Positions 3,909-42,905 of a stretch of DNA of 43,429 nt are shown piece by piece. Position numbers and translations under genes: made by a program. Below the pieces are notes generated by a model, which did not search any database, had not been told where the DNA came from, and worked only from the letters and a program-made list of their open reading frames with translations. Within the stretch, counting starts at the first letter, position 1. The number at the start of each line of letters is the position of its first letter. Location of the stretch: the NCBI GenBank assembly GCA_030018915.1, contig JASEHE010000003.1, positions 1 through 43,429 of the forward strand. Reading direction: 5' to 3'. The stretch comes from Verrucomicrobiota bacterium. Its GTDB lineage: Bacteria; Verrucomicrobiota; Kiritimatiellia; UBA8416; SLMC01.

Positions 3909-3953
3909 GGAAACTGAAGACTCGTGGAAGCCGGAAACTGGAAACTGGATTCC
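3909..3953 (-). repeat. 7-nt tandem repeat patch (minus strand CAGTTTC CAGTTTC plus degenerate units)
   Basis: The plus strand reads ggaaact gaagact ... ggaaact ggaaact ggattcc. It lies 13-57 nt upstream of the recR start, in the ybaB-recR spacer. Confidence 0.5.
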
Positions 3954-3989
3954 TCTGAAAGCAAAGCGGGCCGCTGCCCGCAACCTAAG

Positions 3990-4061
3990 CTTTGTCGCGA
4001 GCCTTGCTGCGCCTCGCCGAAGCCTCCTGGCGAAGGCGGATCGACAAAGCTCGCGACAAAG
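3990..4061. repeat. Long imperfect hairpin (REP-like) in the ybaB-recR spacer
   Basis: Outer stem CTTTGTCGCGAGC (3990-4002) pairs perfectly with GCTCGCGACAAAG (4049-4061). An inner stem pairs CGCCTCGCC with GGCGAAGGCG with one bulge. CGACAAAG is also directly repeated at 4042 and 4054. Confidence 0.5.
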
Positions 4062-4088
4062 GGGCAGTCGAAATCTTCTTGTTTTTCA

Positions 4089-4400
4089 TTACTGAATAAG
4101 ATTCCCAAGCCCCAGGGCGCCGGCCATTTTGGACATTTCGCCGCCGGCTTTCTTCTTGGCAGCCTTGAGCGCCCCGTTCACCCCGGCCACCAGCAGCTCC
4201 TGCAGGCGCGCCACGTTTGCCGGATCCACCGACTGCGGATCAATCGCGATGCTCTCGATGGACATGTCGCCGCGGGCAACGACCTTCACCCGGCCCCCGC
4301 TCACGGAATACTCGACGGTCTTCTTTTCCAGCTCGGCCTGAATTTCCCGCATCTCGCGGCGCATGGTCGCCGCCTGCTGCATCATCTTCAGCACGTTCAT
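4089..4400 (-). CDS. ybaB: YbaB/EbfC nucleoid-associated protein
   Basis: Starts at an internal ATG: MNVLKMMQQAATMRREMREIQAELEKKTVEYSVSGGRVKVVARGDMSIESIAIDP...LQELLVAGVNGALKAA. Sits in the conserved dnaX-ybaB-recR order. Confidence 0.9.
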   Translation of the reverse strand: MNVLKMMQQAATMRREMREIQAELEKKTVEYSVSGGRVKVVARGDMSIESIAIDPQSVDPANVARLQELLVAGVNGALKAAKKKAGGEMSKMAGALGLGNLIQ

Positions 4401-4498
4401 GTCTTCTCCTCGCTCTGATTGCGGGCCAAGCCCGCGCGATCGAACCCGCGGTTTTCCGCTTCCGGGCCCGGCGCGCGCGGTTGCCGCGCAACGCCTTA

Positions 4499-4536
4499 CC
4501 CCGCATATTTCACGCTCCCGCGTGAAATATGCGGGG
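4499..4536. terminator. Perfect 17-bp-stem palindrome between dnaX and ybaB
   Basis: CCCCGCATATTTCACGC tccc GCGTGAAATATGCGGGG. There is no flanking T or A run, so a terminator role is only a guess. It could equally be an RNA processing or stability hairpin, or a protein-binding site. Confidence 0.4.
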
Positions 4537-4569
4537 CGCCGCCATCGGCGGCCTGACGCCGGGTCCGCG

Positions 4570-6246
4570 TCAGGCGCGCACGTCCAGAATCTTGCCCTTG
4601 AACGTCTCCAGCGTTTTCCGGACAGCCGGGTCGTCCAGCAGTTGCTTAGCCGACTGCCCTTTGGACGGGTTGGTGGGGACGGTGGCCGGCGACTCGCCGT
4701 CCGGCGACCGGACCACGAACTCCGCCGTGACCGCGCGGCGCAAGACCTCCTGCAGACCATGCTCGACGGCCACCCTGTTTCGCTGCGCCTTGAAACTGTC
4801 GAGTTCACCGGCAAACTCCGGCTCGAACGCGATCACCACTTTCTCAGCGGCGACGCGAAGCGGCAGAGCGTCTTTGAGCAAATGTTGAATGCCGCCGCCG
4901 ACTGCTATGCGGCCGGCGGCAGCCAGGACATCGTCCCAGTGCTCGCGCAGTTTCGCGAGTTCGTCGGCGTTGCCGGATTCCGGTTCGGCCCGCGCCGCGC
5001 CGCCCGGCGCGGGCGAAACCGGCGGCTCGGTCATGGGCTTCTGGTCCGCGCCGGACGAACGCAGTCCCAGGTTGAGTTCTTCCGCTGGGGCGGGACCGCC
5101 GTTCGATTCCTGGCGCAGTTCGTTGATGCGCGCGAGAATCTCCTCCAGCGTGGCGACACTGACCGCCCGCGCGCAGCGGATGAGCGCGGTCTCCAACAGA
5201 GTCCGCCGCGACAGCGCGTAGCGCATCCGCTCTTCGACGTCCGTCAGAATGCCGACGATCCGCAGCGCGCGCTCCATGGTCGTCAGCGCGGCCTGCTTTT
5301 CCAGGACCACCGCCTGCGTCTCCGCCAGATCCTCGATCGCTGCGCCATTCTCCACGCTCAGGAACACCAAGAGGTTGCGGAAATGCTCGATGAGCTCGAA
5401 CACGAGCCGCTGCAGGTCCTTGCCCGATTGATCAATCTCGGCGACCCGGCGAATCAGTTCCGGAATGTCGCCGCGCAGAATTCGGCCGGCCAGTTCTTCC
5501 AGCAGGCTGCGCGAAACCAGGCCGAACACTGACAGCGCGTCCTCTTCCTCAATCGTCTTGCCCTTGAAGGCGATGAGTTGGTCCAGGGCCGATTCCGCAT
5601 CGCGCAGGCCGCCCTCCGCGCTGCGGGCGATGGCCAGCAAGGCGTCTTCGCTGATCGTGACGGCCTCCGCCTTGGCGATGAGTTTCAGGCGCTCGATGAT
5701 CAGGTTCACCGGGATGCGCCGCAGGTCGAAGCGCTGGCAGCGGGAGACGATCGTGGCCAGGACCTTGTGGGGCTCGGTGGTGGCAAAGATGAACCGCACG
5801 TAAGACGGCGGCTCCTCGATCGTCTTGAGCAGGGCGTTGAAGGCCGCCGGGCTGAGCATGTGCACTTCATCAATGATGTATATCTTGTACGGCCCGCGGG
5901 CCGGCGCATACTGGACCGTGTCGCGAAGGGCCCGCACCTGGTCCACGCTGTTGTTGGAGGCGCCGTCAATTTCCATGACGTCCAGGCTGGTTCCAGCCGC
6001 GATCTCGCGGCAAGCGTCGCAGGCGTCGCAGGGGGTCACGGTCGGCCCTTTATGGCAATTCAGCGCCTTGGCCAGAATCCGGGCCACCGACGTCTTGCCC
6101 GTGCCGCGGGGCCCCACGAAGAGATAGGCGTTTGCCAGCCGCTTGGATCGGACCGCGTTTCGGAGCGTCGTGGTAACGTGCTCCTGTCCGATGACGTCGT
6201 CAAACTGCTGAGGACGCCATTTTCTGGCTAGAACTTCGTATGCCAT
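4570..6246 (-). CDS. dnaX: DNA polymerase III subunit gamma/tau
   Basis: Motifs: MAYEVLARKWRPQQFDDVIGQEHV...YLFVGPRGTGKTS (Walker A)...CxxCxxC zinc module...IYIIDEVHML...SRCQRF. Confidence 0.95.
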   Translation of the reverse strand: MAYEVLARKWRPQQFDDVIGQEHVTTTLRNAVRSKRLANAYLFVGPRGTGKTSVARILAKALNCHKGPTVTPCDACDACREIAAGTSLDVMEIDGASNNSVDQVRALRDTVQYAPARGPYKIYIIDEVHMLSPAAFNALLKTIEEPPSYVRFIFATTEPHKVLATIVSRCQRFDLRRIPVNLIIERLKLIAKAEAVTISEDALLAIARSAEGGLRDAESALDQLIAFKGKTIEEEDALSVFGLVSRSLLEELAGRILRGDIPELIRRVAEIDQSGKDLQRLVFELIEHFRNLLVFLSVENGAAIEDLAETQAVVLEKQAALTTMERALRIVGILTDVEERMRYALSRRTLLETALIRCARAVSVATLEEILARINELRQESNGGPAPAEELNLGLRSSGADQKPMTEPPVSPAPGGAARAEPESGNADELAKLREHWDDVLAAAGRIAVGGGIQHLLKDALPLRVAAEKVVIAFEPEFAGELDSFKAQRNRVAVEHGLQEVLRRAVTAEFVVRSPDGESPATVPTNPSKGQSAKQLLDDPAVRKTLETFKGKILDVRA

Positions 6247-6642
6247 CGGTAAACCTTCTCAACAGCACAATGGCGCAAAATCTACACGTTTCCGTCCGGC
6301 TTTGACAAGCCCCAAGGCTGTTACCCAAATGCGCATAACTGCCGAGCGCCCCACGCGACAGCATGCGGCCACGGCTCGGCTGGCCGTCGTCGCGCCGAAG
6401 CGGCGCTATGCTGCGCCGCGAATGCGGAAGGCCTCGCCCTGTCTGACGACCCACCCTGGTTCGTATAGTATTGCAGGTAGGACGAGCCATCCTCGGCGAG
6501 CTGTGGCTACAGGGCGTCGCATGAAAGACCGCGAATCGGCGCGCTTGACTGCGAGCATGTTTCATATTACGTTCAAAACCAATTGAACGACGGTGTCGCG
6601 TTTCGGTGAGTCACAGCATAATGCGCGGGCACGGAGTGTGAT

Positions 6643-8172
6643 TTGAGGTTCCTGGATACTCTCCTGAGCTGGGCCGGGTTCGTCATGCTCGCCGCCGTTG
6701 CGCTGATTTCTCCCTGGCTCTTCGGGGCGTGGGAGATGTGGTGGTTCTGGCCTTTCGCGGTCCTCCTTTTTCTCTCGACCGCCTTCTTCGGGCTGCGCTG
6801 CCTGATCTGGGGAACTGAGCGACGCCGGCGACGCTTGCCCGCCGATAGGCTGGACTGGTCGCGCCGGTTGGCGGTTGACGTGTCGGACGAACCGTCGGCG
6901 CCGGCGTATCGGGTCCGGTTTCCCGGGATGGCTCTCTGGGCCGTGCTGAGCGCCGCGCCGTTCCTGGTCTACGCGTTCGCGCGGTTTCAGCAGGCGCCGG
7001 TCTTCATGGACGCCGAGCGGAGTTTCCTTCGCTACCTCACGCCCTACTTACTGGGGTTGCAGGTTATCTGCGGCTTCGACCGCCGGCAGCAGCGGATGCT
7101 TTTCGCCCTCTTGCTGACCGATCTCCTGCTGCTGGGCGGGTACGGTATCGTCAACCACTTCACGACCGGCAACGCGATGGCGCTGTGGAGGCCGGGCTAT
7201 CCGCAGTACCAGATCGGGACGCTGCGCGCCACGGGCTCATATTTTTGTCCGGATCATTTTTCCGGGCTCATGGAACTGGCGATTGCGGGCGCGGCAGGTC
7301 TCCTGCTGGCGCGCGAACGTGGCTGGCCCTGGAAACTCGGGGGGCTGCTGCTGCTCGGCGTGGGGCTCGTCGGCGTGGCGCTCAGCAAATCCAGGGGTGG
7401 CGGTCTGACGATCTTGGCAATGAGTCTGGCCGTGACGGTCTGGGGTTTTGGCCAGTGGCCGCCGCCGCAGCGCTGGTACGGCCGGTTGTGCCTGCTTTCC
7501 GCGCTGGCGATCGGGCTGGTCGCGTTCTGGCAGTTCGGGCAGACTTACGTGGAGCGCTTCACGAGCGCCGAGGGCTGGGGCGGCGGGGCAGTGCGGGGCG
7601 ATTCCTGGGCCGAGACCAAGACCCGTCTGATCGCCCGCGCGAATATGACCTCCCGGGGCATGATGATTGCCGGCGCGATCCGCGCCTGGAAAAGCAGTCC
7701 CGTGGTCGGCATCGGACCGGGCATGCACCAGAACCTCTGGCCGCATTTCGCCGCCAGCCCGGACGGGAACCGGGATATGGGCATCTGGCCCAGCCTGCCG
7801 TGCAACGACTTTCACTCCTACGAAGCGCACAGCGATTGGGTCCAGTTCCTCGAGGAATATGGCGCCGTTGGGCTCGGTCTTTTCGCGATCCCGATCTGCG
7901 CATGGTTCGCCATTCTTCTGGTCGGTCTGCGCCGCGAGCGCCTCGCGCGAATGGCCAACGACTGGGACAAAACGGACCATGAGGATCACGCCGCGCTGCT
8001 GGCCGGCCTGCTAGCGGCCGTGGCCATGGGGTTTCATTCGCTGGGCGACTTCAACCTGCAGATTCCGGCCACCGTCTGGCTACTGGCCGCGTTCGTGGCT
8101 CTGGCGCTCGCGCGCGTGATCAGGACTTACCCAGATCCCGTCCGGCCCGCGGCAGAGGACGACGACGCGTGA
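6643..8172 (+). CDS. O-antigen ligase / Wzy_C-family polytopic membrane protein
   Basis: Many predicted TM helices, with LSKSRGGGLTILAMSL and ...GIGPGMHQ...HSYEAHSDWVQFLEEYGAVGLGLF typical of the family. The TTG start at 6643 lies 6 nt after GGAG. An alternative ATG is at 6682. Confidence 0.72.
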   Translation: MRFLDTLLSWAGFVMLAAVALISPWLFGAWEMWWFWPFAVLLFLSTAFFGLRCLIWGTERRRRRLPADRLDWSRRLAVDVSDEPSAPAYRVRFPGMALWAVLSAAPFLVYAFARFQQAPVFMDAERSFLRYLTPYLLGLQVICGFDRRQQRMLFALLLTDLLLLGGYGIVNHFTTGNAMALWRPGYPQYQIGTLRATGSYFCPDHFSGLMELAIAGAAGLLLARERGWPWKLGGLLLLGVGLVGVALSKSRGGGLTILAMSLAVTVWGFGQWPPPQRWYGRLCLLSALAIGLVAFWQFGQTYVERFTSAEGWGGGAVRGDSWAETKTRLIARANMTSRGMMIAGAIRAWKSSPVVGIGPGMHQNLWPHFAASPDGNRDMGIWPSLPCNDFHSYEAHSDWVQFLEEYGAVGLGLFAIPICAWFAILLVGLRRERLARMANDWDKTDHEDHAALLAGLLAAVAMGFHSLGDFNLQIPATVWLLAAFVALALARVIRTYPDPVRPAAEDDDA

Positions 8173-8197
8173 GCTGCTTGCAAAACTTTGTTTGCGG

Positions 8198-8947
8198 ATG
8201 AAGACCATCATCACCAGCGACGCGCATCTGGGCGGGCGGCACTGCCGCGTCGAGCGGTTCGTGTCGTTCCTGGACCGGCTCCCGCCGGATGCGGCCCTGA
8301 TCTTGAACGGCGACATTGTGGACGCGTGGCGGTTTCCGTTTCGCGATCCGTGCATGATGAAGGCGCTGGATCGAATCCGGGCGGAGGCGCGGCTGCGGGA
8401 GGTCACCTGGATTCCCGGCAATAACGACGCCGATTTTGTGATACCGGACCCGGGAAGCATTCGATTTGTGTCCGATGTGACGCTGACGCGCGGGATATAC
8501 GTGACGCACGGCCATTCTTTCGACAAGGTCATGCACAATTTCCTTTTCAACATGCCGTTCCGACTGATGCACAAGCTCGAGATTTCTCTTGGGGCCGCGC
8601 CGATAGACGTGGCCACCTACGTCAAGGCGCGATGGGGGTGGCTCTACCGGCTTCTGCAGCGCCACGTGATCCGCGGCATGGCGGCGTACGCGCGGGAGCG
8701 CGGCTACGCGGCGATCGTGTGCGGCCATCTGCACGAGGCGGACGATCGCGTGATCGAAGGGGTCCGCTATCTGAACACCGGAGCGTGGACCGAGCCGGGC
8801 GAACACTATGTAATCATTGAAAATGGCGAGATACGCCTCCGCGCGGTGGAGGGAGCCGAGGCGCGGGCACCGAACACTCAACATGCAACACTCAACATCC
8901 AACGCTCAACGGAAGAGACTCCCCTTCACTTGGACGTTGGACGTTGA
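8198..8947 (+). CDS. LpxH-like calcineurin-type metallophosphoesterase
   Basis: MKTIITSDAHLGG...LNGDIVDAW...IPGNNDADF...VTHGHSFD...VCGHLHEA follow the metallophosphoesterase motif order, as in UDP-2,3-diacylglucosamine hydrolase. The last ~25 codons are encoded by the heptad hairpin repeat, so the native C-terminus is uncertain. Confidence 0.68.
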   Translation: MKTIITSDAHLGGRHCRVERFVSFLDRLPPDAALILNGDIVDAWRFPFRDPCMMKALDRIRAEARLREVTWIPGNNDADFVIPDPGSIRFVSDVTLTRGIYVTHGHSFDKVMHNFLFNMPFRLMHKLEISLGAAPIDVATYVKARWGWLYRLLQRHVIRGMAAYARERGYAAIVCGHLHEADDRVIEGVRYLNTGAWTEPGEHYVIIENGEIRLRAVEGAEARAPNTQHATLNIQRSTEETPLHLDVGR

Positions 8948-8966
8948 ATGTTGGATGTTGAGTCTC
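8873..8966. repeat. Hairpin made of 7-nt tandem repeats
   Basis: Left arm: aacactc aacatgc aacactc aacatcc aacgctc (8873-8907). Right arm: ggacgtt ggacgtt gaatgtt ggatgtt gagtctc (8932-8966), which is the reverse complement of the same AACRYYC unit. The loop is ~24 nt. The element spans the stop codon of the LpxH-like CDS. Confidence 0.75.
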
Positions 8967-9046
8967 GTTTCTTGTTGCATCCGGCCCATCTCGGGCCAGC
9001 GGCCCAACTGAATCCCGAATCCTGAACCTGGCGCCGTGAACTCACC

Positions 9047-9550: not shown

Positions 9551-9718
9551 AAGATGCGCGTAAAGCTATGCGCCTACGAATGCAGGAACGCCAGATACCG
9601 CAAGAGCAGGTGTGCCAGCAGGCCAATCCGGACCTGTCGCGTGATGGTGTAAGAATGCCCCGTCGGATTGCGTCTATGGGATGCCAGTGAAAGTAAAGGA
9701 GAAAGGAGAAAACGGAAC

Positions 9719-11374
9719 ATGGCTCATCGAGAAGTATCCGTAAGTCCGACCGGGCAGCGATTCCCGATTCCCGAGGCGGCCGACTACGCGAAGGAATTCG
9801 CCCGCCTGCGGAAACTGGTCGACCGGCATCGCCGGGAAGGCCGGGAGATTGTGGTGGTGGTGGGGCTGGGCTTTGTCGGGGCCGTTATGGCCGCCGTGGT
9901 GGCCGATTCGACGGGAAAGAACGGGAAACCCGGCAAGTTCGTGATCGGGATGCAGCGGCCGAGCACGCGGAGTTTCTGGAAGATTCCGCTGCTGAACCGA
10001 GGGATTGCCCCGATGAAGTCGGAGGACCCCGAGGTGGACGTCATCATCCGGCGCTGCGTGAATGAGAAGAAGACGTTCGCGGCAACGTACACGTATGACG
10101 CGCTGCGGCTGGCCGACGTGGTGATCGTGGACGTGCAGTGCGACTACCTCAAGGAATCGCTAGGCAACTGCCGGACCGGCGCCGCGGACATGGAGGCGCT
10201 CGAGGAATCGCTGGGGATAATCGCAGAGCGGATTCCGCCGTCCGCGCTGGTGCTGATCGAAACCACTGTGGCGCCGGGCACGACCGAGCAGGTGGCCTAC
10301 CCGATCATGAAGAGGGCGTTCGAGCAGCGCGGGATCAAGTCCGAGCCGCTGCTCGCGCACAGCTACGAGCGGGTCATGCCCGGGCGGAACTACGTGGGCT
10401 CGATCCGGGATTTCTGGCGCGTGTGCAGCGGAGTGAACGATGAAGCCAAGGCGCGCGTGGTGAAATTTCTCGGGGAGGTGCTGAACACGGCAAAGTACCC
10501 TCTGACGGTTCTGGATCGGCCGATCGAGTCGGAGACGGCGAAGATTGTGGAGAACAGCTACCGGGCTACGATTCTGGCGTTCCTCGACGAATGGTCGCTG
10601 TTCGCCGAGCGCAACGGCGTGGACCTCAAGAAGGTGATCGAGGCGATCAAGGTGCGGCCCACGCATTCGAACATCATCTTCCCGGGGCCCGGCATCGGCG
10701 GGTATTGCCTGCCCAAGGACGGCGGCCTGGGGGTCTGGGCCTACAAGCACGTCCTGGGCTGGGACGACGAGATATTCCGCGTGACGCCGCTGGCGATTGA
10801 CATCAACGATATGCGCGCTCTGCATGCGGCGGAACTGACGCGGGACGCGCTGCGCAACATGGGACGGCCGATCGCGGCCGCCGAAGTATTGCTGCTTGGC
10901 GCGGCGTACCGCGAGGACGTGGGGGATACGCGGTACAGCGGGGCGGAGCTTGTTGTTCGCAAGTTGACGGAGATGGGGGCCGACCTGCGCGCGCACGATC
11001 CATATCTCGATCACTGGTGGGAGTTCGAGGCTCAGGATTTCTACCCGAAGCCGGGCCACAGTTTGGGACGGTTCTTCCACCGCCAGGAGCGGCTCAAGGG
11101 CCTGCGGATCGAATCCGATCTGTGGAAGGCCATGAAGGACGCGGACGCGATCGTGCTGGCGGCGCGGCATGCGCCCTATCTGGCGCTCGATCCAGACCGG
11201 GTGGTGAAGGCCGTGGGCAAGCCGTGCGCGATCGTGGATTGCTTCTGCATCCTGGACGACGCGAAGATGCGCCGGTACTTCGAACTCGGCTGCGAGGTCA
11301 AGGGCATGGGCCGCGGCCATATCCAGCGCATCAAGGAATCCGCGCGGAAACAAACGAGAAAGGGCAGAGAGTAG
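9719..11374 (+). CDS. Nucleotide-sugar dehydrogenase (UDP-glucose/GDP-mannose dehydrogenase family, long form)
   Basis: The ATG follows AAAGGAGAAAGGAGAAAA. Contains the Rossmann VVVVGLGFVGAVMAAV, the motif ...ENSYRATILAF..., and the catalytic-Cys region PGPGIGGYCLPKDG. Confidence 0.85.
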   Translation: MAHREVSVSPTGQRFPIPEAADYAKEFARLRKLVDRHRREGREIVVVVGLGFVGAVMAAVVADSTGKNGKPGKFVIGMQRPSTRSFWKIPLLNRGIAPMKSEDPEVDVIIRRCVNEKKTFAATYTYDALRLADVVIVDVQCDYLKESLGNCRTGAADMEALEESLGIIAERIPPSALVLIETTVAPGTTEQVAYPIMKRAFEQRGIKSEPLLAHSYERVMPGRNYVGSIRDFWRVCSGVNDEAKARVVKFLGEVLNTAKYPLTVLDRPIESETAKIVENSYRATILAFLDEWSLFAERNGVDLKKVIEAIKVRPTHSNIIFPGPGIGGYCLPKDGGLGVWAYKHVLGWDDEIFRVTPLAIDINDMRALHAAELTRDALRNMGRPIAAAEVLLLGAAYREDVGDTRYSGAELVVRKLTEMGADLRAHDPYLDHWWEFEAQDFYPKPGHSLGRFFHRQERLKGLRIESDLWKAMKDADAIVLAARHAPYLALDPDRVVKAVGKPCAIVDCFCILDDAKMRRYFELGCEVKGMGRGHIQRIKESARKQTRKGRE

Positions 11375-31243: not shown

Positions 31244-31257
31244 GGAAACTGGAAACT
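31244..31257 (-). repeat. Two-unit heptad (minus strand AGTTTCC AGTTTCC) in the sugar-transferase leader
   Basis: GGAAACT GGAAACT on the plus strand, 24-37 nt upstream of the minus-strand start at 31220. The same 14-mer occurs at 3933-3946. Two units alone are not statistically remarkable. Confidence 0.35.
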
Positions 31258-32646: not shown

Positions 32647-33828
32647 ATGAAGATCGTTTGTTCTTCTGACATGCCGTTTGCCCGCGAGGCATTCGGCGCG
32701 CTCGGCGAGACCGTGATCCTGGACGGCCGCGCGATCGGCCCACGCGACGCGCGCGACGCCGACATCCTGGCCATCCGCTCCACCACGCGAATCAACCGCA
32801 GGCTGCTCGAAGGGAGCCGAGTGCGCTTCGTTGGCACGGCGACGATCGGCTTCGACCACATGGACACCGCCTACCTGGAAAAGGCCGGCATCCGCTGGCG
32901 CTATTCGCCGGGCTGCAACGCCAACAGCGTGTCGGAGTACATCGCGGCCGCTCTTTCATGCCTCGCCGCGCGGCACGGCTTCGCGCTGGAGGGCTTGACC
33001 GTCGGGGTAGTCGGCGTCGGCAACGTGGGCCGACTCGTCGTGGAAAAGGCCGAGGCGCTCGGCATGCGCGCGCTACAGAACGATCCGCCAAGACAGAGGT
33101 CAGAGGTCGGAGGTCAGAAGTCAGCTGGCAGAGGGCCCTTCGTGTCGCTCGACCGGATTCTGGACGAATCGGATGTGGTGACGCTGCACGTGCCGCTGAC
33201 CAAGGAGGGACCCGATGCCACGTTCCAGATGGCGGATGCCGCGTTCTTCGCGCGGCTGAAGCCCGGCGCGATCCTGATCAATTCCGCTAGGGGCGCAGTG
33301 GTTCAGGCTGACGCGCTGCTGGCCGCCATGAGTCGAGGCATCGTCTCGCATGCCGTGATTGACACCTGGGAAGGCGAGCCGCGCATCCGGCAGGACCTGC
33401 TGGAGCGCGCGGACCTGGGCACGCCGCACATTGCCGGCTATTCCTACGAGGGCAAGGTCATGGGGACCGTCATGGTGTACCGGGAAGCGTGCCGATTCCT
33501 GGGCGTCGAGCCGTCGTGGCAACCCGACCGGCTGCTGCCCGCGCCGCCGGCGCCCGAGGTTCGATGCGACGCGGCCGGCTTGAGGGACGAGGAAGCGCTT
33601 TGGAACATCGCTCGCCAAGTCTACGACATTGAATTCGATGACCGGAACCTGCGCGCGCCTCCACCGGACGCGAGGCCGGGGGATGAGACCGAACGCGCCC
33701 GGCATTTCGACGGGCTCCGGATTCACTATCGGATTCGCCGTGAATTCCGATTCACGCGGGTGCGACTGACCGCCGCCTCCGAACCGTTGGCCCGCAAAGT
33801 CGGGGGACTGGGGTTCTCGATTGTGTGA
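32647..33828 (+). CDS. pdxB: 4-phosphoerythronate dehydrogenase
   Basis: FVGTATIGFDHMD...PGCNANSVSEY...VGVVGVGNVG...NDPPR...TLHVPLT...LINSARGAVV...VIDTWEGEP...TPHIAGYSYEGK, plus a PdxB-type C-terminal dimerisation domain. Confidence 0.88.
   Translation: MKIVCSSDMPFAREAFGALGETVILDGRAIGPRDARDADILAIRSTTRINRRLLEGSRVRFVGTATIGFDHMDTAYLEKAGIRWRYSPGCNANSVSEYIAAALSCLAARHGFALEGLTVGVVGVGNVGRLVVEKAEALGMRALQNDPPRQRSEVGGQKSAGRGPFVSLDRILDESDVVTLHVPLTKEGPDATFQMADAAFFARLKPGAILINSARGAVVQADALLAAMSRGIVSHAVIDTWEGEPRIRQDLLERADLGTPHIAGYSYEGKVMGTVMVYREACRFLGVEPSWQPDRLLPAPPAPEVRCDAAGLRDEEALWNIARQVYDIEFDDRNLRAPPPDARPGDETERARHFDGLRIHYRIRREFRFTRVRLTAASEPLARKVGGLGFSIV
33094..33128 (+). repeat. 7-nt tandem repeat inside the pdxB coding sequence
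   Basis: CAGAGGT CAGAGGT CGGAGGT CAGAAGT CAGCTGG, translated in frame as ..QRSEVGGQKSAG.. This falls in the variable loop after the conserved DPPR motif. Confidence 0.65.
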
Positions 33829-35176: not shown

Positions 35177-35983
35177 ATGTCAAGCACGGTCACAGTCGCC
35201 ATTTTGGGAGCGGGCGGACGAATGGGGCAGGCGCTCGTTCGGTGCGCGGGACGGATCGGTTCGGTAAAGTTGGTTGCCGCGATCGAGCGGAAAGGCCATC
35301 CCGCAGTGGGCCGGGACGCGGGCGTCGCGGCCGGCATCGCCGCAACCGGCGTGATGATCGGCGACAACCCGCGCGGGTTCGGAGACGCCGACGTCCTCGT
35401 TGATTTCACGCTGCGCGACGCGGTCCCGGCCAATTGCCGCGTCGCCGTCGAGAACCGGCGGGCCATGGTGATCGGGACAACGGGCCTGAACGACGACGAG
35501 AAGGCCGCCGTGGAGCGGGCCGCGGCCTTAGTGCCGATCGTGCAGGCGCCGAACATGAGTCTGGGCGTCAATGTGTTATTCGCCATGGTAAAGAAGGCCG
35601 GCGAAATTTTGGGCTCCGGCTACCGTATTGAGATTGACGAGACGCACCACATCCACAAGAACGATGCGCCGAGCGGCACCGCCCTGCGGCTGGGCCAGAA
35701 GGCGGCCGAGGGGCTGGGCCGCGATTTCAAGGCCATGCTGGCGCACGACCCGGAGGGCCAGGGCAAAATTCGGGCGGACGACAAGTTGGTGATCCGCTCC
35801 TTCCGACGCGGGGAGGTGGTGGGCGACCACACCGTGAGTTTCGAAAACGCGAGCGAAAAAATCGAGTTCACGCATCATGCATGGAGTCGGGAAGCCTTTG
35901 CCATGGGAGCGCTTCGGGCCGCCGAATGGGTCGTGAGCCAACGGCCCGGCCTCTACGACATGCAGGATGTCCTGGGGCTATAG
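35177..35983 (+). CDS. dapB: 4-hydroxy-tetrahydrodipicolinate reductase
   Basis: VAILGAGGRMGQAL...VDFT...VIGTTGL...APNMSLGVN...EIDETHHIHKNDAPSGTAL...FRRGEVVGDHTV.F. Confidence 0.93.
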   Translation: MSSTVTVAILGAGGRMGQALVRCAGRIGSVKLVAAIERKGHPAVGRDAGVAAGIAATGVMIGDNPRGFGDADVLVDFTLRDAVPANCRVAVENRRAMVIGTTGLNDDEKAAVERAAALVPIVQAPNMSLGVNVLFAMVKKAGEILGSGYRIEIDETHHIHKNDAPSGTALRLGQKAAEGLGRDFKAMLAHDPEGQGKIRADDKLVIRSFRRGEVVGDHTVSFENASEKIEFTHHAWSREAFAMGALRAAEWVVSQRPGLYDMQDVLGL

Positions 35984-35993
35984 GGGGAGTGTC

Positions 35994-36028
35994 CATGTGT
36001 CAGGTTTCAGGTGTCAAGTGTCGGGCCG
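35994..36028 (+). repeat. 7-nt tandem repeat directly after dapB
   Basis: CATGTGT CAGGTTT CAGGTGT CAAGTGT CGGGCCG begins 11 nt after the dapB stop. It shares the 14-mer GGTTTCAGGTGTCA with the array at 39609-39639. Confidence 0.62.
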
Positions 36029-36624: not shown

Positions 36625-36685
36625 TGTCGGCTTCGCGTCAGGAGGTTAGCCCTGCGGCGCAGACCGGGCTGCCTCTTTTCCCCTT

Positions 36686-36713
36686 GTAACCTGCAACCTG
36701 TAACCTGTAACTT
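36686..36713. repeat. 7-nt tandem repeat abutting the panB start codon
   Basis: GTAACCT GCAACCT GTAACCT GTAACTT ends 8 nt before the panB ATG. Its reverse complement reads CAGGTTA/CAGGTTG units, related to the CAGGTGT family. No Shine-Dalgarno sequence is visible in the remaining 7 nt. Confidence 0.65.
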
Positions 36714-37588: not shown

Positions 37589-37589
37589 T

Positions 37590-37975: not shown

Positions 37976-38010
37976 GTCACTGCTCCAAGGGCCTTGTCGA
38001 TGTCACGCTC

Positions 38011-38031: not shown

Positions 38032-38115
38032 ACGGAGGAATGATCCCGTTCTGACGGGCCAGACGCAGGTCTGTGCATGTGCGCAGGTGGCCTGCCTGTG
38101 TCCCCGGTTGGACTC

Positions 38116-38280: not shown

Positions 38281-38818
38281 GGCTTCGCCTCCGTGATGCT
38301 TCCGGCGTGTTTCTCGAAATCGCGGCAGTCCCCGATCATCTGGACGCCGACCGTTACGCCGGCCCGCGCGACGCGCACCCGGCGCGACTGGATCCCGATG
38401 ACCTCACCCTGTCTGACGAGCGCGTCCGCCTGGCTCGCCGGCTCCCAGCGCGCGTGAGGCGGCGGGCGATCGATCTCGGCCGCTACGCCAGGCTGAGGGC
38501 GGGGTCGACGCCGATGGAGAGGTCGTGTCGTCCGAGCGGCGTGCCGGGATCCTGACGGACATAGCCGTCGTCGTATTCGCGGTCGGCATAGGATCCGAGC
38601 GATCCAACGTCCACCCGGCTGCCGGACCGCGTCGGGGCGGGCGAGCACTGCACGTCGGATCTTTGGACCGCGGGAGGGAATACACCGCGGTCGGGTTCTA
38701 TGTCCCATTGATCGTCTACACAGACAAACCCAGTTACTACACCGAACTTGAATGTGCGCTCGCGGCCGTCAAAAGCAGCCTGTTCAATCGCGCCGTTGTG
38801 TGATAATCCTCGGGGCAT
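38277..38818 (-). pseudogene. Unassigned coding-looking region with a frame break, coupled to rubredoxin
   Basis: High GC3 in frame A (..VQCSPAPTRSGSRVDVGSLGSYADREYDDGYVRQDPGTPLGRHDLSIGVDPALSLA*, stop at 38483). Downstream of ~38480, frame B has high GC3 ([68 protein letters not shown]). The frame B stop overlaps the rubredoxin ATG (ATGA). No family recognised. Confidence 0.3.
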
Positions 38819-39089
38819 GAGCTTGAAACGTCAGACGGGTCCGGAGACGACGTCGGGCAAGGCCACCGCGCGGCTGCCGGTCGAGGGCCGGCCCCACTAC
38901 CCGGCCGCCGCGCGGGCTAGGGTCCATGACGCCGAGTACTTCCGCACCCTGATCGAGAGCGCAACGGACGGCGTGGCCGTCGCCTTGCCCGACGGAACGG
39001 TCCAATACCACAACCCGGCGCTGACGGCGCTGTTGGGCTACGCCTCCCGCGAGTTCTACGCTGAGGGCCTGACCTCGCTGGAGCGGTAG
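38817..39089 (+). CDS. Short ORF encoding only the N-terminal half of a PAS domain
   Basis: MSLKRQTGPE...DAEYFRTLIESATDGVAVALPDGTVQYHNPALTALLGYASREFYAEGLTSLER*. High GC3. The PAS core beta-strands after the ...GY...E.. segment are absent, and the stop is 2 nt before the next gene. Confidence 0.45.
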   Translation: MSLKRQTGPETTSGKATARLPVEGRPHYPAAARARVHDAEYFRTLIESATDGVAVALPDGTVQYHNPALTALLGYASREFYAEGLTSLER

Positions 39090-39091
39090 GC

Positions 39092-39610
39092 GTGGAGAAG
39101 AAACCCATCGTCATCATCGATGCCTGGAACACCATTCGCGGCGTGCCACGCCTGCGGCAGGCCATGACCGGCGGTCTCGAGGCCGCCCGGCAGGCCGTGG
39201 TTCGGTTCGCCGCCGCCTGGCTCGCGCGCCGGGGGGATGTCGGCCAGTTCTGGCTCGTGTTCGACGGCGGGGCGCCTGCCTACGACGCCGAGCCGGCGGC
39301 CGGCATCCGCGTCATTCACAGCGGCGCTGATCTCAAAGCCGACGACCGGATCGTTCAACTCGTGGAGCGGCACATCCGCGACCACGCCTTGGTGATCGTT
39401 TCCGACGACCGCGAGGTAATTGACAGATGCCGGCAACTCGGAGCGGACTCGCAGTCCACCGCCGAATTCTTCGGGATACCGGAAGACACGAGACGGCCCG
39501 CTGCCGCCCGCCGCGGCGGGCGCGGCAAAGCCGATGCGAAGAATATGCTTTCCCCGGCCGAAGAGAAGGCCATCAATGACGAGTTGAAGAAAGTGTGGGG
39601 GATTGAATGA
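39092..39610 (+). CDS. NYN-domain (YacP/Rae1-like) predicted ribonuclease
   Basis: GTG start. KPIVIIDAWNTIRGVP.L...........AR.AVV.....W........LVFDGG....................VIHSG.DLKADDRIVQLV matches the YacP pattern (IVDGYN...VVFDA...ADD.I). Confidence 0.7.
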   Translation: MEKKPIVIIDAWNTIRGVPRLRQAMTGGLEAARQAVVRFAAAWLARRGDVGQFWLVFDGGAPAYDAEPAAGIRVIHSGADLKADDRIVQLVERHIRDHALVIVSDDREVIDRCRQLGADSQSTAEFFGIPEDTRRPAAARRGGRGKADAKNMLSPAEEKAINDELKKVWGIE

Positions 39611-39639
39611 GGTGTCAGGTGTCGGGTTTCAGGTGTCAG
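39609..39639 (+). repeat. 7-nt tandem repeat abutting the NYN gene stop
   Basis: GAGGTGT CAGGTGT CGGGTTT CAGGTGT CAGG starts inside the TGA stop (39608-39610). Same unit family as 35994-36028. Confidence 0.62.
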
Positions 39640-39803
39640 GAAAGAGTAGAAGTGAAGAGAGATCGGGAGGTGGGCGCATGCCGTGGCTCGGAGCAGATTC
39701 TGTTCGTTCGGTCTCCCGCCTCGAATCCCCAGTTTCCCCTCCCGGTTTCTGTTGTCGCCCCCAAAATTACGTTTCGCGTCTCCTTCCGCCCTGACACCTT
39801 CTC

Positions 39804-40259
39804 ATGACAAAACTGATTGTGACCTGGTCCGTGCAGCGGTTTCGGCGGCTTGCAAAGGAGTTGCCGAACGCCGAGGACTCAGTTCTCGAGATCGGCTGCT
39901 CGACCGGTGGAACCACGCGGTGTCTTGCCGGGCGCTGCGCGCGGGTGGTTGCGGTGGACCTGGGCGCCGAGGTGGTAAAGAACCTGCAAGCCGAGCTCGC
40001 CGCAAAGCCCAACGTGACGGTCGCCCGCGTGGACGGGCGTGACGCAGCCCGCCTGCGTTCGCTGCTGCCGGATCCCGATCTGATCTTCCTGGACATCGGC
40101 GGGACGGCGCTGCTGGGCAACATTGCCGTGGTGCTCCGGGAGTGCCTCCAGGCGTTCATGCCGCAGGCGCTGGTGGTGCGGAATACCGAGCTGGCGACCG
40201 TGGGCGGCGCTGATCGCGGAGGCCGAGCGGCCCGAGGAATTGAGTTTCCGCCCGATTGA
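39804..40259 (+). CDS. Small class I SAM-dependent methyltransferase (3' end probably frame-shifted)
   Basis: Motif I VLEIGCSTGGTT, followed by VVAVDLG...and LIFLDIGG. After ~residue 133 the GC3 signal moves to the +1 frame. Confidence 0.6.
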   Translation: MTKLIVTWSVQRFRRLAKELPNAEDSVLEIGCSTGGTTRCLAGRCARVVAVDLGAEVVKNLQAELAAKPNVTVARVDGRDAARLRSLLPDPDLIFLDIGGTALLGNIAVVLRECLQAFMPQALVVRNTELATVGGADRGGRAARGIEFPPD

Positions 40260-40476
40260 CGGCCCGGATGGCGCTGCCGGGAGCCTGCGGAGTTTGCTCG
40301 ATCTGTCGCGCAGCGCGAACGTGAGCGACCGGATTTTTGCCGCGCGCAAGCTGCGCAAACTGAAGACACCGGAGGCTCGCGCCCGGCTCCGTGAAATGGC
40401 CGCCGACCACAAAGGCCGCGTGCGCCGGATCGCGGAACTGGCTCGCCAGGATATGCGGTATTCGGCTTTGAAATAG
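40200..40476 (+). pseudogene. HEAT-like C-terminal segment in a different frame from the methyltransferase
   Basis: LIAEAERPEELSFRPIDGPDGAAGSLRSLLDLSRSANVSDRIFAARKLRKLKTPEARARLREMAADHKGRVRRIAELARQDMRYSALK* has high GC3 but no plausible own start or RBS. This is either one gene with an indel near 40190-40215 or a sequencing error. Confidence 0.4.
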
Positions 40477-40496
40477 CCACGCCCGGGCCCCGCCTG

Positions 40497-42131
40497 TCAC
40501 GGCGAAAAGAACAAAGCGTTCCGCGAGCGGTCTGATTCTCCGGGCCGTAAAACGACATAGGTCGGGAGTCCGCGCGCCTGCAAGCGGTCCAGGACGGGCT
40601 TGATGTCCGGCGCCTTCATGTCCTCGACACGGAACTTGACCTTCACGTAGCGCTCCAGCCGGCGGATGACGGCGGGGTCGCGGAAGGTGGTCTGCTCCAT
40701 CTTGAGGCAGCTCTTGCACCAGCTTGCCCAGCAGTCCACGAACACGGGCTGGCCCCGGCCCGCGGCGAGCTCCAGGGCATGATCCAGCGAGGTGAGCCAG
40801 GCGCCCCCCTGCTCCGCGCTCTGCGCCTGGGCCTCGGCGATCGCCTGGTGGCGCGATGCCGCGCGATCGATGAGGAGGTTCGCACCCAGCCAGGCATAGT
40901 AGCCCGCGAAGCCGAGCACGATGACGCCGAACCCGTTCTTGATCCACGCCATCCAGCGGCCCGGCTTGGGGAGGAAGGCGAGCCCTGCGCCCGCCAGCGG
41001 CCAGGGCAAGGCCATCCCGACGCCCAGCACGAACGGCAGGAGAAGCCCGGCGGCCTTGCCCTGCGCGTACAAGCCGGCGGAGAGCAGGAGCACGGAGATC
41101 AGGATCGGCGCCACGCAGGCGCCGGCCAGGAGCGCCGCAATCCCGCCGAACACAAATGCCGCGGCGAAACGACTCCCGCCGGCACTGCCCGATCCGACCC
41201 GGGTCTGGAAGCGGCTGAAGTCTATGCTGAACGCGCCGAACGTGGCGAGCGCCAGCAGCGTGAACACCAGGGCGATGCCCAGGTTGAACCAGGGGGAGGA
41301 GTTCAGGGCGCCGAACCGGGCGCCCGCCACGACCACGGCCAGCCCGAGCAGGCCGTAGACCACGGCCATGCCGGCGCCGTAAGCCGCCCCAATAGCAAAG
41401 CTGCGGGCCCGTGAGCCGGCTTGACCGCCGGCGCCTATAATCGCGACGTTGATTGGGATCATGGGCAGGACGCATGGGGTGAGGTTCAGCGCCAAGCCGC
41501 CGAGCAGGATCAGGAACAGCGTAATCCATGGCCCCTTCCGCTTCAGCGCGTCCTGAAGACGGTCCGGCGCAAGCCCCTTCCCGGTTTCGACGAAGTCAAG
41601 AAAAGCGAGGAATTCTTCCGGGGCAAGATAACCGGTGGCGCGCCCCGTGATCGCGAATCCCTTCAGCGAATCGCCCGCAGGCGGCGGCGCGACGGCCGGC
41701 GGGGCGGCCGGCGCTCCCGGTCCGGGAAGCCGGGCCACGAGGTCCCGGTGGGTCGGCTGGTAGCAGATCTTCTCCCCGCAGCCCTGGTAGTCAACGGCAA
41801 GGCGGATCTCGTTGCTGCTGAGGCCGGACACCCCGTAGTGGAAGACGGCGTCATGCTCATAGACGCTGACCGTCTTCTTCAGGAATTCGTCGTGCTTCTG
41901 CTTGGCGGCGGGGATGGTCAACGGCGCCAGGCTGGCTCCGGCGCCGGCCTTGACCTGGATATGGTCGGCATAGAGGTAGGCGCCGCCGGCCTTGACCTGG
42001 AACGTCACGGCAACGACTGTTTGAGTCTGGTTCGTGGCCAGGAGGCGGGCCGAGACGCCGAACGGATCGTCCTGGGCCGTTGCACGGGATGCCAGAAGAA
42101 CGAGAGCTGTCAGAATCGCGCGTGTCGTCAT
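40497..42131 (-). CDS. dsbD: Thiol:disulfide interchange protein DsbD (protein-disulfide reductase)
   Basis: Signal peptide MTTRAILTALVLLASRATAQ, an N-terminal DsbD-alpha-like domain, a TM core with LNLTPCVLPMIP and ...AGACVAP..., and a C-terminal thioredoxin fold VFVDCWASWCKSC. ATG 42131 lies 8 nt after GGAG. A GTG alternative is at 42152. Confidence 0.88.
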   Translation of the reverse strand: MTTRAILTALVLLASRATAQDDPFGVSARLLATNQTQTVVAVTFQVKAGGAYLYADHIQVKAGAGASLAPLTIPAAKQKHDEFLKKTVSVYEHDAVFHYGVSGLSSNEIRLAVDYQGCGEKICYQPTHRDLVARLPGPGAPAAPPAVAPPPAGDSLKGFAITGRATGYLAPEEFLAFLDFVETGKGLAPDRLQDALKRKGPWITLFLILLGGLALNLTPCVLPMIPINVAIIGAGGQAGSRARSFAIGAAYGAGMAVVYGLLGLAVVVAGARFGALNSSPWFNLGIALVFTLLALATFGAFSIDFSRFQTRVGSGSAGGSRFAAAFVFGGIAALLAGACVAPILISVLLLSAGLYAQGKAAGLLLPFVLGVGMALPWPLAGAGLAFLPKPGRWMAWIKNGFGVIVLGFAGYYAWLGANLLIDRAASRHQAIAEAQAQSAEQGGAWLTSLDHALELAAGRGQPVFVDCWASWCKSCLKMEQTTFRDPAVIRRLERYVKVKFRVEDMKAPDIKPVLDRLQARGLPTYVVLRPGESDRSRNALFFSP

Positions 42132-42266
42132 CGGGGCGTCTCCGCTTGTCACGGCGAGCGGGCCGGTTTCGTCCCGCCGGATGGAGCCGAGGCTCCCGCC
42201 GTTGTCGGATGGTGGCCGCCTCGCTTCGGCCAGTTCTTCACCGTCTGGCGCGGGCAGGCGGGGCGG

Positions 42267-42863
42267 TCACCCGCCGGGCCGGTTCGACCACCAGTTTTCC
42301 CCGAGCAGTTCGAAGTAGGCCTGGGGATGCGCGCAGGCGGGGCAGGCGTCCGGGGCCGTGGCGCCCTGGTGCAGGTATCCGCAGTTGCGGCAGCGCCACA
42401 CGACGGGCTTGTCCCGCTTGAAGACCCGGCCTTCCTCGATATTCTTCGCCATGGCGAGGTAGCGCTTTTCGTGCTGCTTTTCGGCCACGGCGACGGCCTC
42501 GAACACCTTGCCGATCTCGTCGAAGCCCTCCCGGCGGGCGACCTTGGCGAAGGACGGGGACATGTTCGACCACTCGTGGTGCTCGCCCGCGGCCGCCGCT
42601 TTCAGGTTGTCGGCGGTGGCGCCGATGACGCCGGCGGGGAACGCGGCGGTGATCTCCACCTCGCCGCCTTTGAGGAACTTGAAGAAACGCTTGGCGTGCT
42701 CCTTCTCCTGGTTGGCGGTCTCGGTGAAGATGTCGGCGATCTGGACGAATCCTTCCTTGTCGGCCTTGCCGGCAAAGAAGGTGTAGCGGTTCTTGGCCTG
42801 GGACTCGCCCGCAAAGGCGGTCAACAGGTTCCTCTCGGTCTGCGTCCCTTTCAGCGACTTCAT
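42267..42863 (-). CDS. rbr: Rubrerythrin
   Basis: MKSLKGTQTERNLLTAFAGESQAKNRYTFFA...ETANQEKEHAKRFF...AAAGEHHEW...AEKQHEKRY is the diiron four-helix bundle. The C-terminal rubredoxin-like module is WRCRNCGY...CPACAHP. Confidence 0.92.
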   Translation of the reverse strand: MKSLKGTQTERNLLTAFAGESQAKNRYTFFAGKADKEGFVQIADIFTETANQEKEHAKRFFKFLKGGEVEITAAFPAGVIGATADNLKAAAAGEHHEWSNMSPSFAKVARREGFDEIGKVFEAVAVAEKQHEKRYLAMAKNIEEGRVFKRDKPVVWRCRNCGYLHQGATAPDACPACAHPQAYFELLGENWWSNRPGG

Positions 42864-42891
42864 GCGCGCCTCCTTCGTGCGGTCTGCGTGC

Positions 42892-42905
42892 TTCTGCCTT
42901 CTGCC
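42892..42905 (-). repeat. Two-unit heptad in the rubrerythrin leader
   Basis: Plus strand CTTCTGC CTTCTGC, minus strand GGCAGAA GGCAGAA then GCACGCA GACCGCA. It lies ~29-42 nt upstream of the rbr ATG. It is weak on its own and noted only because it fits the pattern elsewhere. Confidence 0.3.

Follow-up and report, generated by a model that had tools for sequence, protein, structure and literature searches.

What generates short tandem arrays of a 7-nucleotide (nt) unit at one gene boundary after another, and do such arrays act on the genes beside them? These questions are raised by a 43,429-nt stretch of DNA from a Verrucomicrobiota bacterium (contig JASEHE010000003.1, positions 1 to 43,429 of the forward strand; hereafter the window), in which a family of heptanucleotide arrays had been predicted from the sequence alone. 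We find that period-7 arrays far exceed chance in the window, that the excess extends over sampled loci of the Planctomycetes–Verrucomicrobia–Chlamydiae (PVC) superphylum, and that the window arrays belong to a known, still unexplained class of heptanucleotide repeats. The account towards which we lean, with a little better than even confidence, is slipped-strand duplication at the DNA level that favours a 7-base step, followed by selection, with a subset of the arrays acting in cis.

Period-7 arrays exceed chance in the window

We detected arrays with Tandem Repeats Finder (TRF) and with a mismatch-tolerant, lag-based detector of our own. Ten of the 27 TRF rows in the window have a period of 7 or 14 (Table 1), and the lag-based detector identifies nine period-7 arrays compared with 0.46 expected from 100 second-order Markov simulations, in which the largest count was three. 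Periods 4, 5, 8, 10, 11 and 13 yield only zero or one array each with the same detector, and exact 7+7 duplications number ten in the window, compared with none of period 8 and two of period 9. Seven window arrays hold 2.7–4.4 copies by TRF, with a period of 14 counted as two units of 7, and four more hold 2–2.4. Units within an array match at 83–91% and are thus degenerate, and arrays run to two to five units. With a 7-nt unit in at least three tandem copies, and with counts above both the sequence model and the neighbouring periods here and in the PVC intergenic DNA described below, the window arrays fall within the definition of heptanucleotide long simple sequence repeats (SSRs).

Every array of the original prediction was located by TRF or in the sequence at, or a few bases from, its predicted position. 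Three further arrays had been missed (3269-3291, 9695-9711 and 9758-9774). The expectation that multi-unit arrays lie beyond chance is borne out by these counts, and the comparison of periods that the prediction proposed gives period 7 as the commonest of the periods counted, both in the window and in the sampled PVC loci. We give next to no credence to a reading of the arrays as chance matches or as artefacts of assembly. Two-unit cases (31244, 42891, 9695 and 9758) individually fit chance, as a window of this size should contain ~2.7 exact 7+7 repeats, but for the multi-unit arrays the reading is refuted by the simulation counts and by conservation of an array in the leader of panB. The period-7 excess also spans the sampled PVC loci, and the same arrays are present in independent assemblies of other samples: arrays in the panB leader and 3′ of dapB recur with unit variants in the independently assembled loci L081, L161, L162 and L167, which rules out the assembly artefact that the prediction had named as a possible refutation.

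The excess spans PVC loci and is confined to non-coding DNA

For comparison we used loci (L-numbers) biased towards dapB and panB neighbourhoods; the metagenome loci among them carry no taxonomic assignment, and close relatives are few and lie on short contigs. Across 697 kb of PVC loci around dapB, 64 period-7 arrays occur, compared with 16 of period 8, eight of period 5 and four of period 10, and an identical scan of 395 kb of Bacteroidota control loci returns only five arrays of period 7. Exact 7+7 duplications in PVC intergenic DNA reach 59, where 9.4 would be expected; period-5 duplications number 97 against 93.8 expected, and period 8 exhibits a smaller excess of 9 against 1.9. In PVC coding DNA, period-7 duplications stand at 0.8 of expectation (45 versus 57.7). 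Confinement of the excess to non-coding DNA is a property of the heptanucleotide SSR class, and it is seen here also as 74% of arrays lying in the 12% of DNA that is intergenic. Together with an excess at stop codons, this share upholds the predicted concentration of arrays at gene boundaries. Some relatives are nearly array-free, including L163 over 20 kb (DapB 66% identical) and L082.

We considered whether spacers are built wholly of decayed arrays and rejected the idea: lag-7 autocorrelation after masking of the arrays is 0.268, compared with a baseline of 0.264. As no residual lag-7 signal remains after masking, the arrays are discrete islands and not the general fabric of spacers.

Other repeat tracts stand out among the comparison loci. 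A 22-unit CAACATC/CAATATC array occupies the end of a Limisphaerales contig (L040, 13-169) and belongs to the family of the window arms at 8873-8960 and of an array ahead of folK in L162. In L009 (5893-6113), ~220 nt consist of consecutive G-rich heptamer arrays (GGGTCGA, CAGACCG, GGGCGTC and GGGCCGC) that may form G-quadruplexes, in which they would resemble the repeats of Xanthomonas and Nostoc. The spacer ahead of panB in L168 (563-678) carries a period-8 array of GGCACAAA type and, inverted, its complement, a pair expected to fold into a hairpin. A repeat of a different kind, a ~100-nt tandem duplication, lies in the 290-nt folK–panB spacer of another relative (L165, 1040-1328, and L166, 1-204).

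Arrays are anchored at stop codons and follow the transcribed strand

To define where arrays lie relative to genes, we placed 76 arrays in spacers between co-directional genes against a null of uniform placement with 200,000 simulations. Twenty of the 76 start no more than 5 nt from the stop codon upstream, compared with 6.3 expected, and no simulation reached that count. The excess is also present where the upstream gene encodes at least 200 residues (14 versus 4.2 expected). Arrays within 5 nt of a start codon number four of 76, against 6.3 expected.

Base composition differs between the two sides of a spacer. On the mRNA strand, arrays on the stop side are rich in G and T and poor in C (G exceeds C in 22 and C exceeds G in 7), whereas start-side arrays are C/A-rich and G-poor (C exceeds G in 13 and G exceeds C in 4; Mann–Whitney p=0.0015 for stop-side versus start-side G/C composition). 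In array-free spacers, G exceeds C at both ends. Window arrays obey this strand rule: those at 39610, 36000, 42891 and 3269 are G-rich after stops, and those at 36688 and 3926 are C-rich before starts. The predicted tie between array orientation and transcription thus finds support, in that strand composition follows the direction of transcription.

Unit sequences were compared as exact shared units; single-linkage clustering at one mismatch or fewer merged nearly all units and was dropped. Several exact units recur, including CAGGGTT at six loci, CAGGTGT/CAGGTTT at five, and CTGAATT and CCAACAT at four each. The conserved CAG anchor that had been proposed for the window family is present in about 7 of 11 window arrays, but amounts to no more than a tendency among 138 arrays of related loci (CAG/CTG in 27.5% of units versus 19.2% of background, p=0.011 uncorrected and lost on correction), and CTGA/TCAG is the robust motif instead.

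Two roles in translation were examined. A multi-frame stop trap, in which a stop triplet within the heptamer would place stops in all three frames within 21 nt, was rejected, because stop-side arrays with stops in every frame are equally numerous on the sense and antisense strands (4 versus 4 and 7 versus 7). Replacement of the Shine–Dalgarno motif by arrays is likewise unsupported, the motif occurring in 43% of genes with an array within 35 nt upstream and in 39% of others (p=0.73). Shine–Dalgarno-like pairing of G-rich arrays (AGGUG, GAGGU) was considered from the window arrays; other stop-side arrays have no such motifs on inspection.

Arrays in the panB leader and downstream of dapB are conserved

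Two window arrays can be followed between genomes. The panB leader contains a block (TTTTCC-CTTGTAACC ... CATG) shared by four genomes (the window, L081, L161 and L167), whose PanB proteins are 75–88% identical. All four leaders have four units, with variant units in place and in register; the upstream gene in L167 is different and divergent. Between the window, L081 and L161, the three closest leaders, the six substitutions are confined to the 12 NNN positions, the first three of each unit, and none touches the 16 AACC/AACT positions (roughly P~0.006); adding the more distant L167 weakens this pattern, because core positions also change there, from A to G. The conserved parts could instead reflect promoter-like hexamers, TTGTAA and TAACTT separated by ~18 nt, for a leaderless transcript or one with a very short leader. 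The panB array belongs to the same CAGGTNN family as the arrays at 35988 and 39611, on the opposite strand.

In L164, whose PanB is 76% identical, GTTCTTA x5 abuts the folK ATG and GAAACTT x4 ends 5 nt before the panB ATG (928-985 and 1490-1536). Judging by this relative, the presence of an array at the folK/panB position appears to be more widely kept than any given unit.

The array 3′ of dapB has five units in the window and four in L162. The two copies are ~90% identical over 36 aligned nt and have in common an irregular 8-nt first unit and a TTT variant, whereas the remaining spacer is unalignable and dapB itself is at 77% nucleotide identity. The dapB–folK spacer measures 137–140 nt with the array in the window and L162, compared with 4 nt in L161, from which the array is absent.

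Within the window, 35988-36016 aligns with 39611-39638 over 28 nt in the variant order GTGTCAG, GTGTCNG, GTTTCAG, GTGTCA. The same unit order is present at L162, and L147 exhibits a related alternating GTGT/GTTT pattern. On this alignment the two window arrays are best read as copies of one ~28-nt element. The original prediction had preferred a shared mechanism with a period of 7 to duplication of a single element; the specificity for period 7 and the many units over PVC loci agree with it, and this pair of copies does not.

Heptamer growth is recorded in coding DNA

The array at 33094-33124 lies within pdxB and is translated as QRSEVGGQKS. Alignment with solved structures (PDB 3oet and 5dt9) reveals that the window PdxB has 7 extra loop residues, corresponding to 21 nt or three units, and places the array in what appears to be a surface, tolerant loop. 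The conserved PPRQRSE motif, encoded in the window by CAGAGGTCAGAG, itself amounts to 1.7 CAGAGGT units, and these would be a natural seed for slippage. In 80 PVC homologues the loop after PPRQR (window 33070-33130) is a length hotspot, with 0 to ~50 extra residues among homologues P0122-P0200, and 7-residue periodic inserts of varied length include QRSEVRGQRSEIRGQR, SEARGQKSEDRGQR and LNTEHQTLNTR. As heptamer arrays are translated in PdxB loops, the process that forms them also operates in coding DNA, where arrays survive only as multiples of three units. The prediction that the arrays are not coding repeats is contradicted by this translated, in-frame 21-nt insertion, and also by an inverted array pair at 8873, the first arm of which lies inside the 3′ end of an open reading frame (ORF).

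Differences in unit number are also visible between orthologous AATGATG arrays of L021 and L032, whose dapB genes are at 78% nucleotide identity. The arrays have 9.6 units in L021 versus 4.6 in L032, variant units are common to both, and the additional units in L021 are perfect copies, which points to growth by slippage. Between their dapB and folK genes both loci carry an inserted small gene for a 23S-rRNA-intervening-sequence protein (PF05635, E=3.5e-19; L021, 5920-6396; L032, 993-1431), flanked by inverted arrays, (AATGATG)n upstream and (CATTCAT)/(TCATCAC)n downstream. From their sequences, these two arrays could pair with each other and enclose the gene in a long stem, as in rRNA intervening sequences.

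An inverted pair forms a hairpin and single arrays are nearly unstructured

The inverted arms at 8871-8967 fold at -47 kcal/mol (z = -8.0, 0 of 200 shuffles as good), in a stem interrupted by about one mismatch per unit. This hairpin spans the last ~24 codons and the stop codon (8945-8947) of a metallophosphoesterase ORF (8198-8947), the Pfam domain of which ends at residue ~203 of 251; the hairpin-encoded tail of ~24 residues, NTQHATLNIQRSTEETPLHLDVGR, lies beyond it. The C-terminus of the phosphoesterase as annotated is probably a by-product of the repeat element, which seems to have overrun the original end of the gene. The hairpin is followed by UCUCGUUUCUUGUUG, a U-rich but interrupted tail, and it is unlisted by a consensus terminator scan because its stem and loop exceed the limits of the scan.

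Single arrays are nearly structure-free, with a minimum free energy of 0 in half of them. We also considered whether arrays avoid structure more than their composition dictates and set this aside, as the array energy of -1.42 compared with -1.52 for shuffles is a tiny gap and mostly a composition effect. The panB spacer is less structured than its own shuffles (z = +1.7), and no consensus RNA structure was found in the panB leader or in the other spacers examined. Consensus scans for sigma-70-type promoters and simple terminators beside arrays give counts no higher than those expected from shuffles.

On the minus strand, a GC-rich hairpin at 3966-3981 followed by TTTGCTTTCA lies downstream of ybaB and just before the recR leader array, and it looks like a terminator. 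The ybaB and recR genes are usually treated as a single operon.

Gene setting and catalogue of window arrays

The window has a G+C content of ~63%. By Pfam and our own gene calls it encodes recR, ybaB and dnaX on the minus strand, a long polysaccharide-synthesis cluster, and lysA, pdxB, dapA, dapB, folK, panB, a yacP-like NYN gene, a DsbD-like gene, a rubrerythrin and a phosphoenolpyruvate (PEP)-utilising enzyme. No tRNA genes were found in the window, and Rfam covariance models at gathering score gave zero matches across it. The top DapB matches among species-representative genomes are 57–60% identical and come from metagenome-assembled genomes labelled Lentisphaerae, Victivallales, Kiritimatiellae and Verrucomicrobiota; the nearest relatives at DapB or PanB are 77–88% identical. 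These matches indicate that the array-bearing organism is an uncultured PVC-superphylum bacterium, apparently Kiritimatiellota/Lentisphaerota-like.

Table 1 Heptanucleotide arrays of the window, with the period-7 or period-14 rows reported by TRF
Coordinates	Strand	Array	TRF row	Setting and remarks
3269-3291	-	GTGGTCG GTAATCG GTGGTCG GT (sense), period 7/14		Own detector; 54-nt spacer between recR stop and Ala_racemase_N-domain gene (2523-3248)
3909-3953	-	CAGTTTC-type; sense TCCAGTT TCCAGTT TCCGGCT TCC...	3925-3949 (3.6 copies)	ybaB–recR spacer; recR leader array (3926-3949) 29 nt upstream of recR ATG (3896) and downstream of the terminator-like hairpin 3981-3966
8871-8967	+	Inverted pair; arm 1 (CAACRYY)n, 8873-8910; arm 2 (TTGGAYG)n, 8930-8960	8873-8910; 8930-8960	Hairpin at end of metallophosphoesterase ORF
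9695-9711	+	AAAGGAG x2.4	9695-9711 (100% match)	Shine–Dalgarno-like heptamer duplicated in tandem; AAAGGAG AAAGGAG AAA ends 7 nt upstream of ATG 9719, UDP-glucose/GDP-mannose dehydrogenase-family gene
9758-9774	+	CGATTCC x2.4	9758-9774	Within 5′ end of UDP-glucose/GDP-mannose dehydrogenase-family gene; two units, could be chance
31244-31257		GGAAACT x2 (minus strand AGTTTCC x2)		Divergent spacer between sugar transferase (start 31220, -) and lysA (start 31393, +)
33094-33124	+	CAGAGGT x4.4	33094-33124	Inside pdxB, translated
35988-36022	+	GTGTCAG/GTTTCAG	35997-36022	137-nt dapB–folK spacer; placed 5–16 nt after dapB stop (35981-35983), beginning at 5 nt
36685-36711	+	TGTAACC TGCAACC TGTAACC TGTAACT (reverse complement CAGGTTA)	36685-36711	Ends 9 nt before panB ATG (36721)
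39610-39640	+	AGGTGTC AGGTGTC GGGTTTC AGGTGTC AGG	39610-39640	First base is last base of yacP (NYN domain) stop, 39608-39610
42891-42906	-	GGCAGAA x2.3 (sense)	42891-42906 (100% match)	48-nt spacer from PEP-utilising-enzyme stop to rubrerythrin start; 5 nt past the stop and 27 nt ahead of the start, then GAAGGAGG ribosome-binding site

Relation to known heptamer repeats

Heptanucleotides are reported to be the most abundant class of long simple repeats in most prokaryotic genomes, and 7-nt slippage has been proposed to reflect the DNA segment that contacts the polymerase (Mrazek 2007, as summarised in PMC4679880 and PMC4692102). In Table 2 of a later survey, the 7n3 pattern has the most and the largest positive phylum medians among simple-repeat classes, with Planctomycetes highest at 2.0 and Verrucomicrobia at 0.5 (Huang and Mrazek 2014, PMC4060949). 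The novelty that the original prediction implied is therefore not sustained, as a bacterial heptanucleotide excess is already documented (PMC4679880, PMC4692102 and PMC4060949). The window arrays resemble the 7n3 and long SSR class in their 7-nt units, copy number of at least three, period-7 excess, intergenic position and many different units. The survey papers, in the parts cited here, give counts only, from cultured genomes, and those parts do not describe stop anchoring, the strand flip, in-frame three-unit loop insertions or the conservation of single arrays. A search of the literature available to us on Verrucomicrobia, Planctomycetes, Kiritimatiellota and Lentisphaerota returned no report of heptamer repeats beyond the survey table.

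Individual heptamer systems share some of these features. Mazel and colleagues are said to have described in 1990 the cyanobacterial STRR heptamers CCCCAGT, TTGGTCA and CAACAGT. Like them, the window arrays are tandem heptamers in few recurrent families dispersed in non-coding DNA, and the window units CAACACT and CAACATC are one to two bases from the STRR3 unit CAACAGT. The STRR units and their heterocystous cyanobacterial hosts are absent here, however: the phylum differs, the nearest unit (CAACACT) is one base off CAACAGT, and the dominant window family, CAGGTKT, is not an STRR unit. STRR families are also defined by high copy number over the genome, whereas 43 kb of window contain two to three CAGGTKT copies and one inverted CAACRYY pair.

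In Geobacter metallireducens, a four-heptamer element, GGACCGG x4, is found at 49 sites, alongside MTYCTGA x5 (PMC2700814). As here, these are discrete elements of four to five heptamers at many loci, between and within genes, for which a regulatory role is proposed, and one class contains the CTGA that is enriched in our arrays too. Two window loci and L162 have an architecture of this type, four units in a common order, and L147 has a related form, but the consensus differs from GGACCGG. Units and phylum also differ, and each Geobacter family has one consensus in many copies, compared with two to three copies visible here and most units unique to a locus.

Direct TAACTGA repeats occur upstream of start codons in marine Beggiatoaceae, some Cyanobacteria and Bacteroidetes, and binding of ribosomal protein S1, cold-shock proteins (Csp) or CsrA has been suggested for them (MacGregor 2015, PMC4679880). 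They resemble the present arrays as two to six tandem intergenic heptamers near gene starts with a unit that includes CTGA. That system is dominated by one unit, which sits a few nt before starts, whereas here units are many and the significant excess lies after stops; no window array contains a TAACTGA unit, and placement beside a start, at the low count given above, is a matter of single cases (panB, and folK and panB of L164). The GGGAATC/GGGGAYT heptamers of Xanthomonas and Nostoc are intergenic, mostly of four units and sometimes in inverted pairs, with stem-loops possible (Rehm et al. 2015, PMC4692102). They consist of repeated G-tracts for which G-quadruplex formation has been proposed, whereas the window units have no G-tracts, and the block in L009 is G-rich.

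A period of 7 bp can also be read on DNA. The ribbon-helix-helix omega repressor of plasmid pSM19035 binds contiguous 7-bp heptads in direct or inverted orientation, and MetJ binds tandem 8-bp metboxes. The likeness is one of reading mode only, contiguous short repeats in 2–10 copies with one protein dimer on each. Here units are locus-specific, and most arrays follow stop codons instead of lying in promoters.

Origin and possible roles of the arrays

The slippage-and-selection account that we favour would run as follows. Arrays would be born and would grow by slipped-strand duplication with a 7-nt preference, as a genome-wide process. Selection removes arrays from coding DNA, 7 not being a multiple of 3, and leaves those in spacers; as pdxB shows, a coding array can also survive when a net three units (21 nt, 7 residues) fall in a tolerant loop. 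Where an array persists depends on position and strand. Either the transcript is under orientation-dependent selection, possibly because C-rich, G-poor RNA after a stop would invite Rho and because a G-poor, unstructured leader would aid initiation, or some arrays have a genuine role in cis. A subset has probably been co-opted. The panB-leader array and the GTGTCAG array 3′ of dapB would act as unstructured elements of leaders or intercistronic regions, and inverted pairs would provide strong hairpins with a possible part in the termination or stability of transcripts. Some arrays probably act in cis.

Several observations weigh against this account. The rationale for a 7-base step is a published conjecture. 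Slippage has no ready explanation for the fact that two unlinked window loci carry their variant units in identical order, nor for the reappearance of the units CAGGGTT, CAGGTKT, CCAACRT and CTGAATT in unrelated genomes, and it leaves the anchoring at stop codons unexplained, which holds in long spacers as well (10 versus 2.0 expected). CTGA/TCAG is enriched in units (13.8% versus 5.3% of background, p=1.2e-4, which survives correction for ~136 tetramers). Copy number in PVC loci is flat over two to four units and then falls (22, 22, 22, 4 and 3 arrays) instead of declining steadily, although detection bias could contribute, and the net gain of three units in pdxB is hard to reach by stepwise slippage, as the intermediates are frameshifts. 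The position statistics, moreover, all depend on our own heuristic gene caller, with which Pfam concurs for the window, and the comparative data amount to ~1.5 Mb of loci collected around dapB and panB rather than whole genomes.

Some of these points would be accommodated if the arrays were mainly periodic protein-binding sites, with one 7-nt unit for each subunit or domain, that control initiation, coupling or mRNA fate at gene boundaries. We consider this unlikely as a general account; candidate readers would be OB-fold proteins such as cold-shock proteins or S1, or a HutP/TRAP-like ring, on the RNA side and an omega-like repressor on the DNA side. Cold-shock domains contact ~6–7 nt, and HutP reads UAG-N4 triplets. 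Binding would fit the anchoring at stop codons, the strand- and position-dependent composition, the typical length of three to five units, the recurrence of units across genomes with CTGA/TGAA enriched, the conservation of the dapB-3′ array but not of its flanks, and the restriction of panB-leader substitutions to NNN positions in the window, L081 and L161, and it has a precedent in the S1, Csp or CsrA binding suggested for TAACTGA repeats (PMC4679880). Yet dozens of unrelated units in one 43-kb window and its relatives are more than a single reader protein could serve, arrays also occupy protein-coding loops, the close relative L161 has no dapB–folK spacer, and L163 is nearly array-free. The changed core positions of L167 and the promoter-like hexamers offer an equal explanation of the panB leader, the frequency of Shine–Dalgarno motifs is unaffected by upstream arrays, and no candidate binding protein was identified. 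Still less do we expect that the recurrent families (CAGGTKT, CCAACRT and the inverted pairs), or all arrays, are dispersed elements copied as blocks by MITE-like (miniature inverted-repeat transposable element) mobility, templated repair or gene conversion. This reading would fit the 28-nt variant order common to two unlinked window loci and L162, with its relative in L147, and it would also cover the presence or absence of the array-bearing spacer between near relatives, the 21-nt block in pdxB, the strong hairpin of inverted arrays that overran an ORF end, the inverted AATGATG/CATCATT arrays around the inserted gene of L021 and L032, and the parallel of 49 dispersed four-heptamer copies in Geobacter metallireducens (PMC2700814). 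Against block copying, similarity stops at the edges of the arrays, neither target-site duplications nor terminal structures were observed, the arrays have no linked transposase or other mobility gene, and most units are unique to a locus; the pdxB unit can be derived from local coding sequence with no need for import, and the expansion of perfect units in L021 resembles ordinary slippage.

The original prediction had also listed slippage-prone contingency tracts, in which gain or loss of units would switch flanking genes by phase variation. Tandem repeats near start codons, with a unit length that 3 does not divide, are the classical architecture of such loci, and unit number does differ between L021 and L032, but we hold this to be very improbable for the arrays described here. 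Phase-variable loci have long, perfect, variable tracts at surface or variable genes, whereas the window arrays are short and degenerate and their neighbours are housekeeping genes (recR, dapB, folK, panB and pdxB, and also yacP and rubrerythrin). All four panB leaders keep four units with their variants in place, the dapB-3′ array keeps its irregular first unit at five versus four units across ~23% dapB nucleotide divergence, and most arrays follow stops, where a change of frame is without effect.

Implications

An excess of heptamers has been known since 1990 from STRR repeats and since 2007 from genome surveys. The present loci add new handles on the reason for 7 nt and on function. The PdxB insertion hotspot, being in frame, records the birth and growth of arrays as protein sequence; anchoring at stops and the flip of strand composition between the two sides of a spacer provide positional rules; and the panB-leader and dapB-3′ arrays are conserved enough for mutational testing. 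For annotation, gene callers run ORFs through arrays, as at recR and the phosphoesterase C-terminus, and translated arrays show up in genuine proteins as 7-residue periodic inserts of low complexity. If the positional rules hold genome-wide, mutation bias and function can be weighed against each other directly. A bolder generalisation, which we offer as a long shot, is that heptad arrays are a general, strand-specific punctuation of polycistronic transcripts in PVC bacteria, and perhaps in all heptamer-rich lineages, with G/U-rich arrays after stops and their C/A-rich reverse complements before starts read by a conserved factor with heptad spacing. If so, that factor would set translation coupling, Rho access or mRNA processing, and the supposedly mutational excess of heptamers would be largely its footprint.

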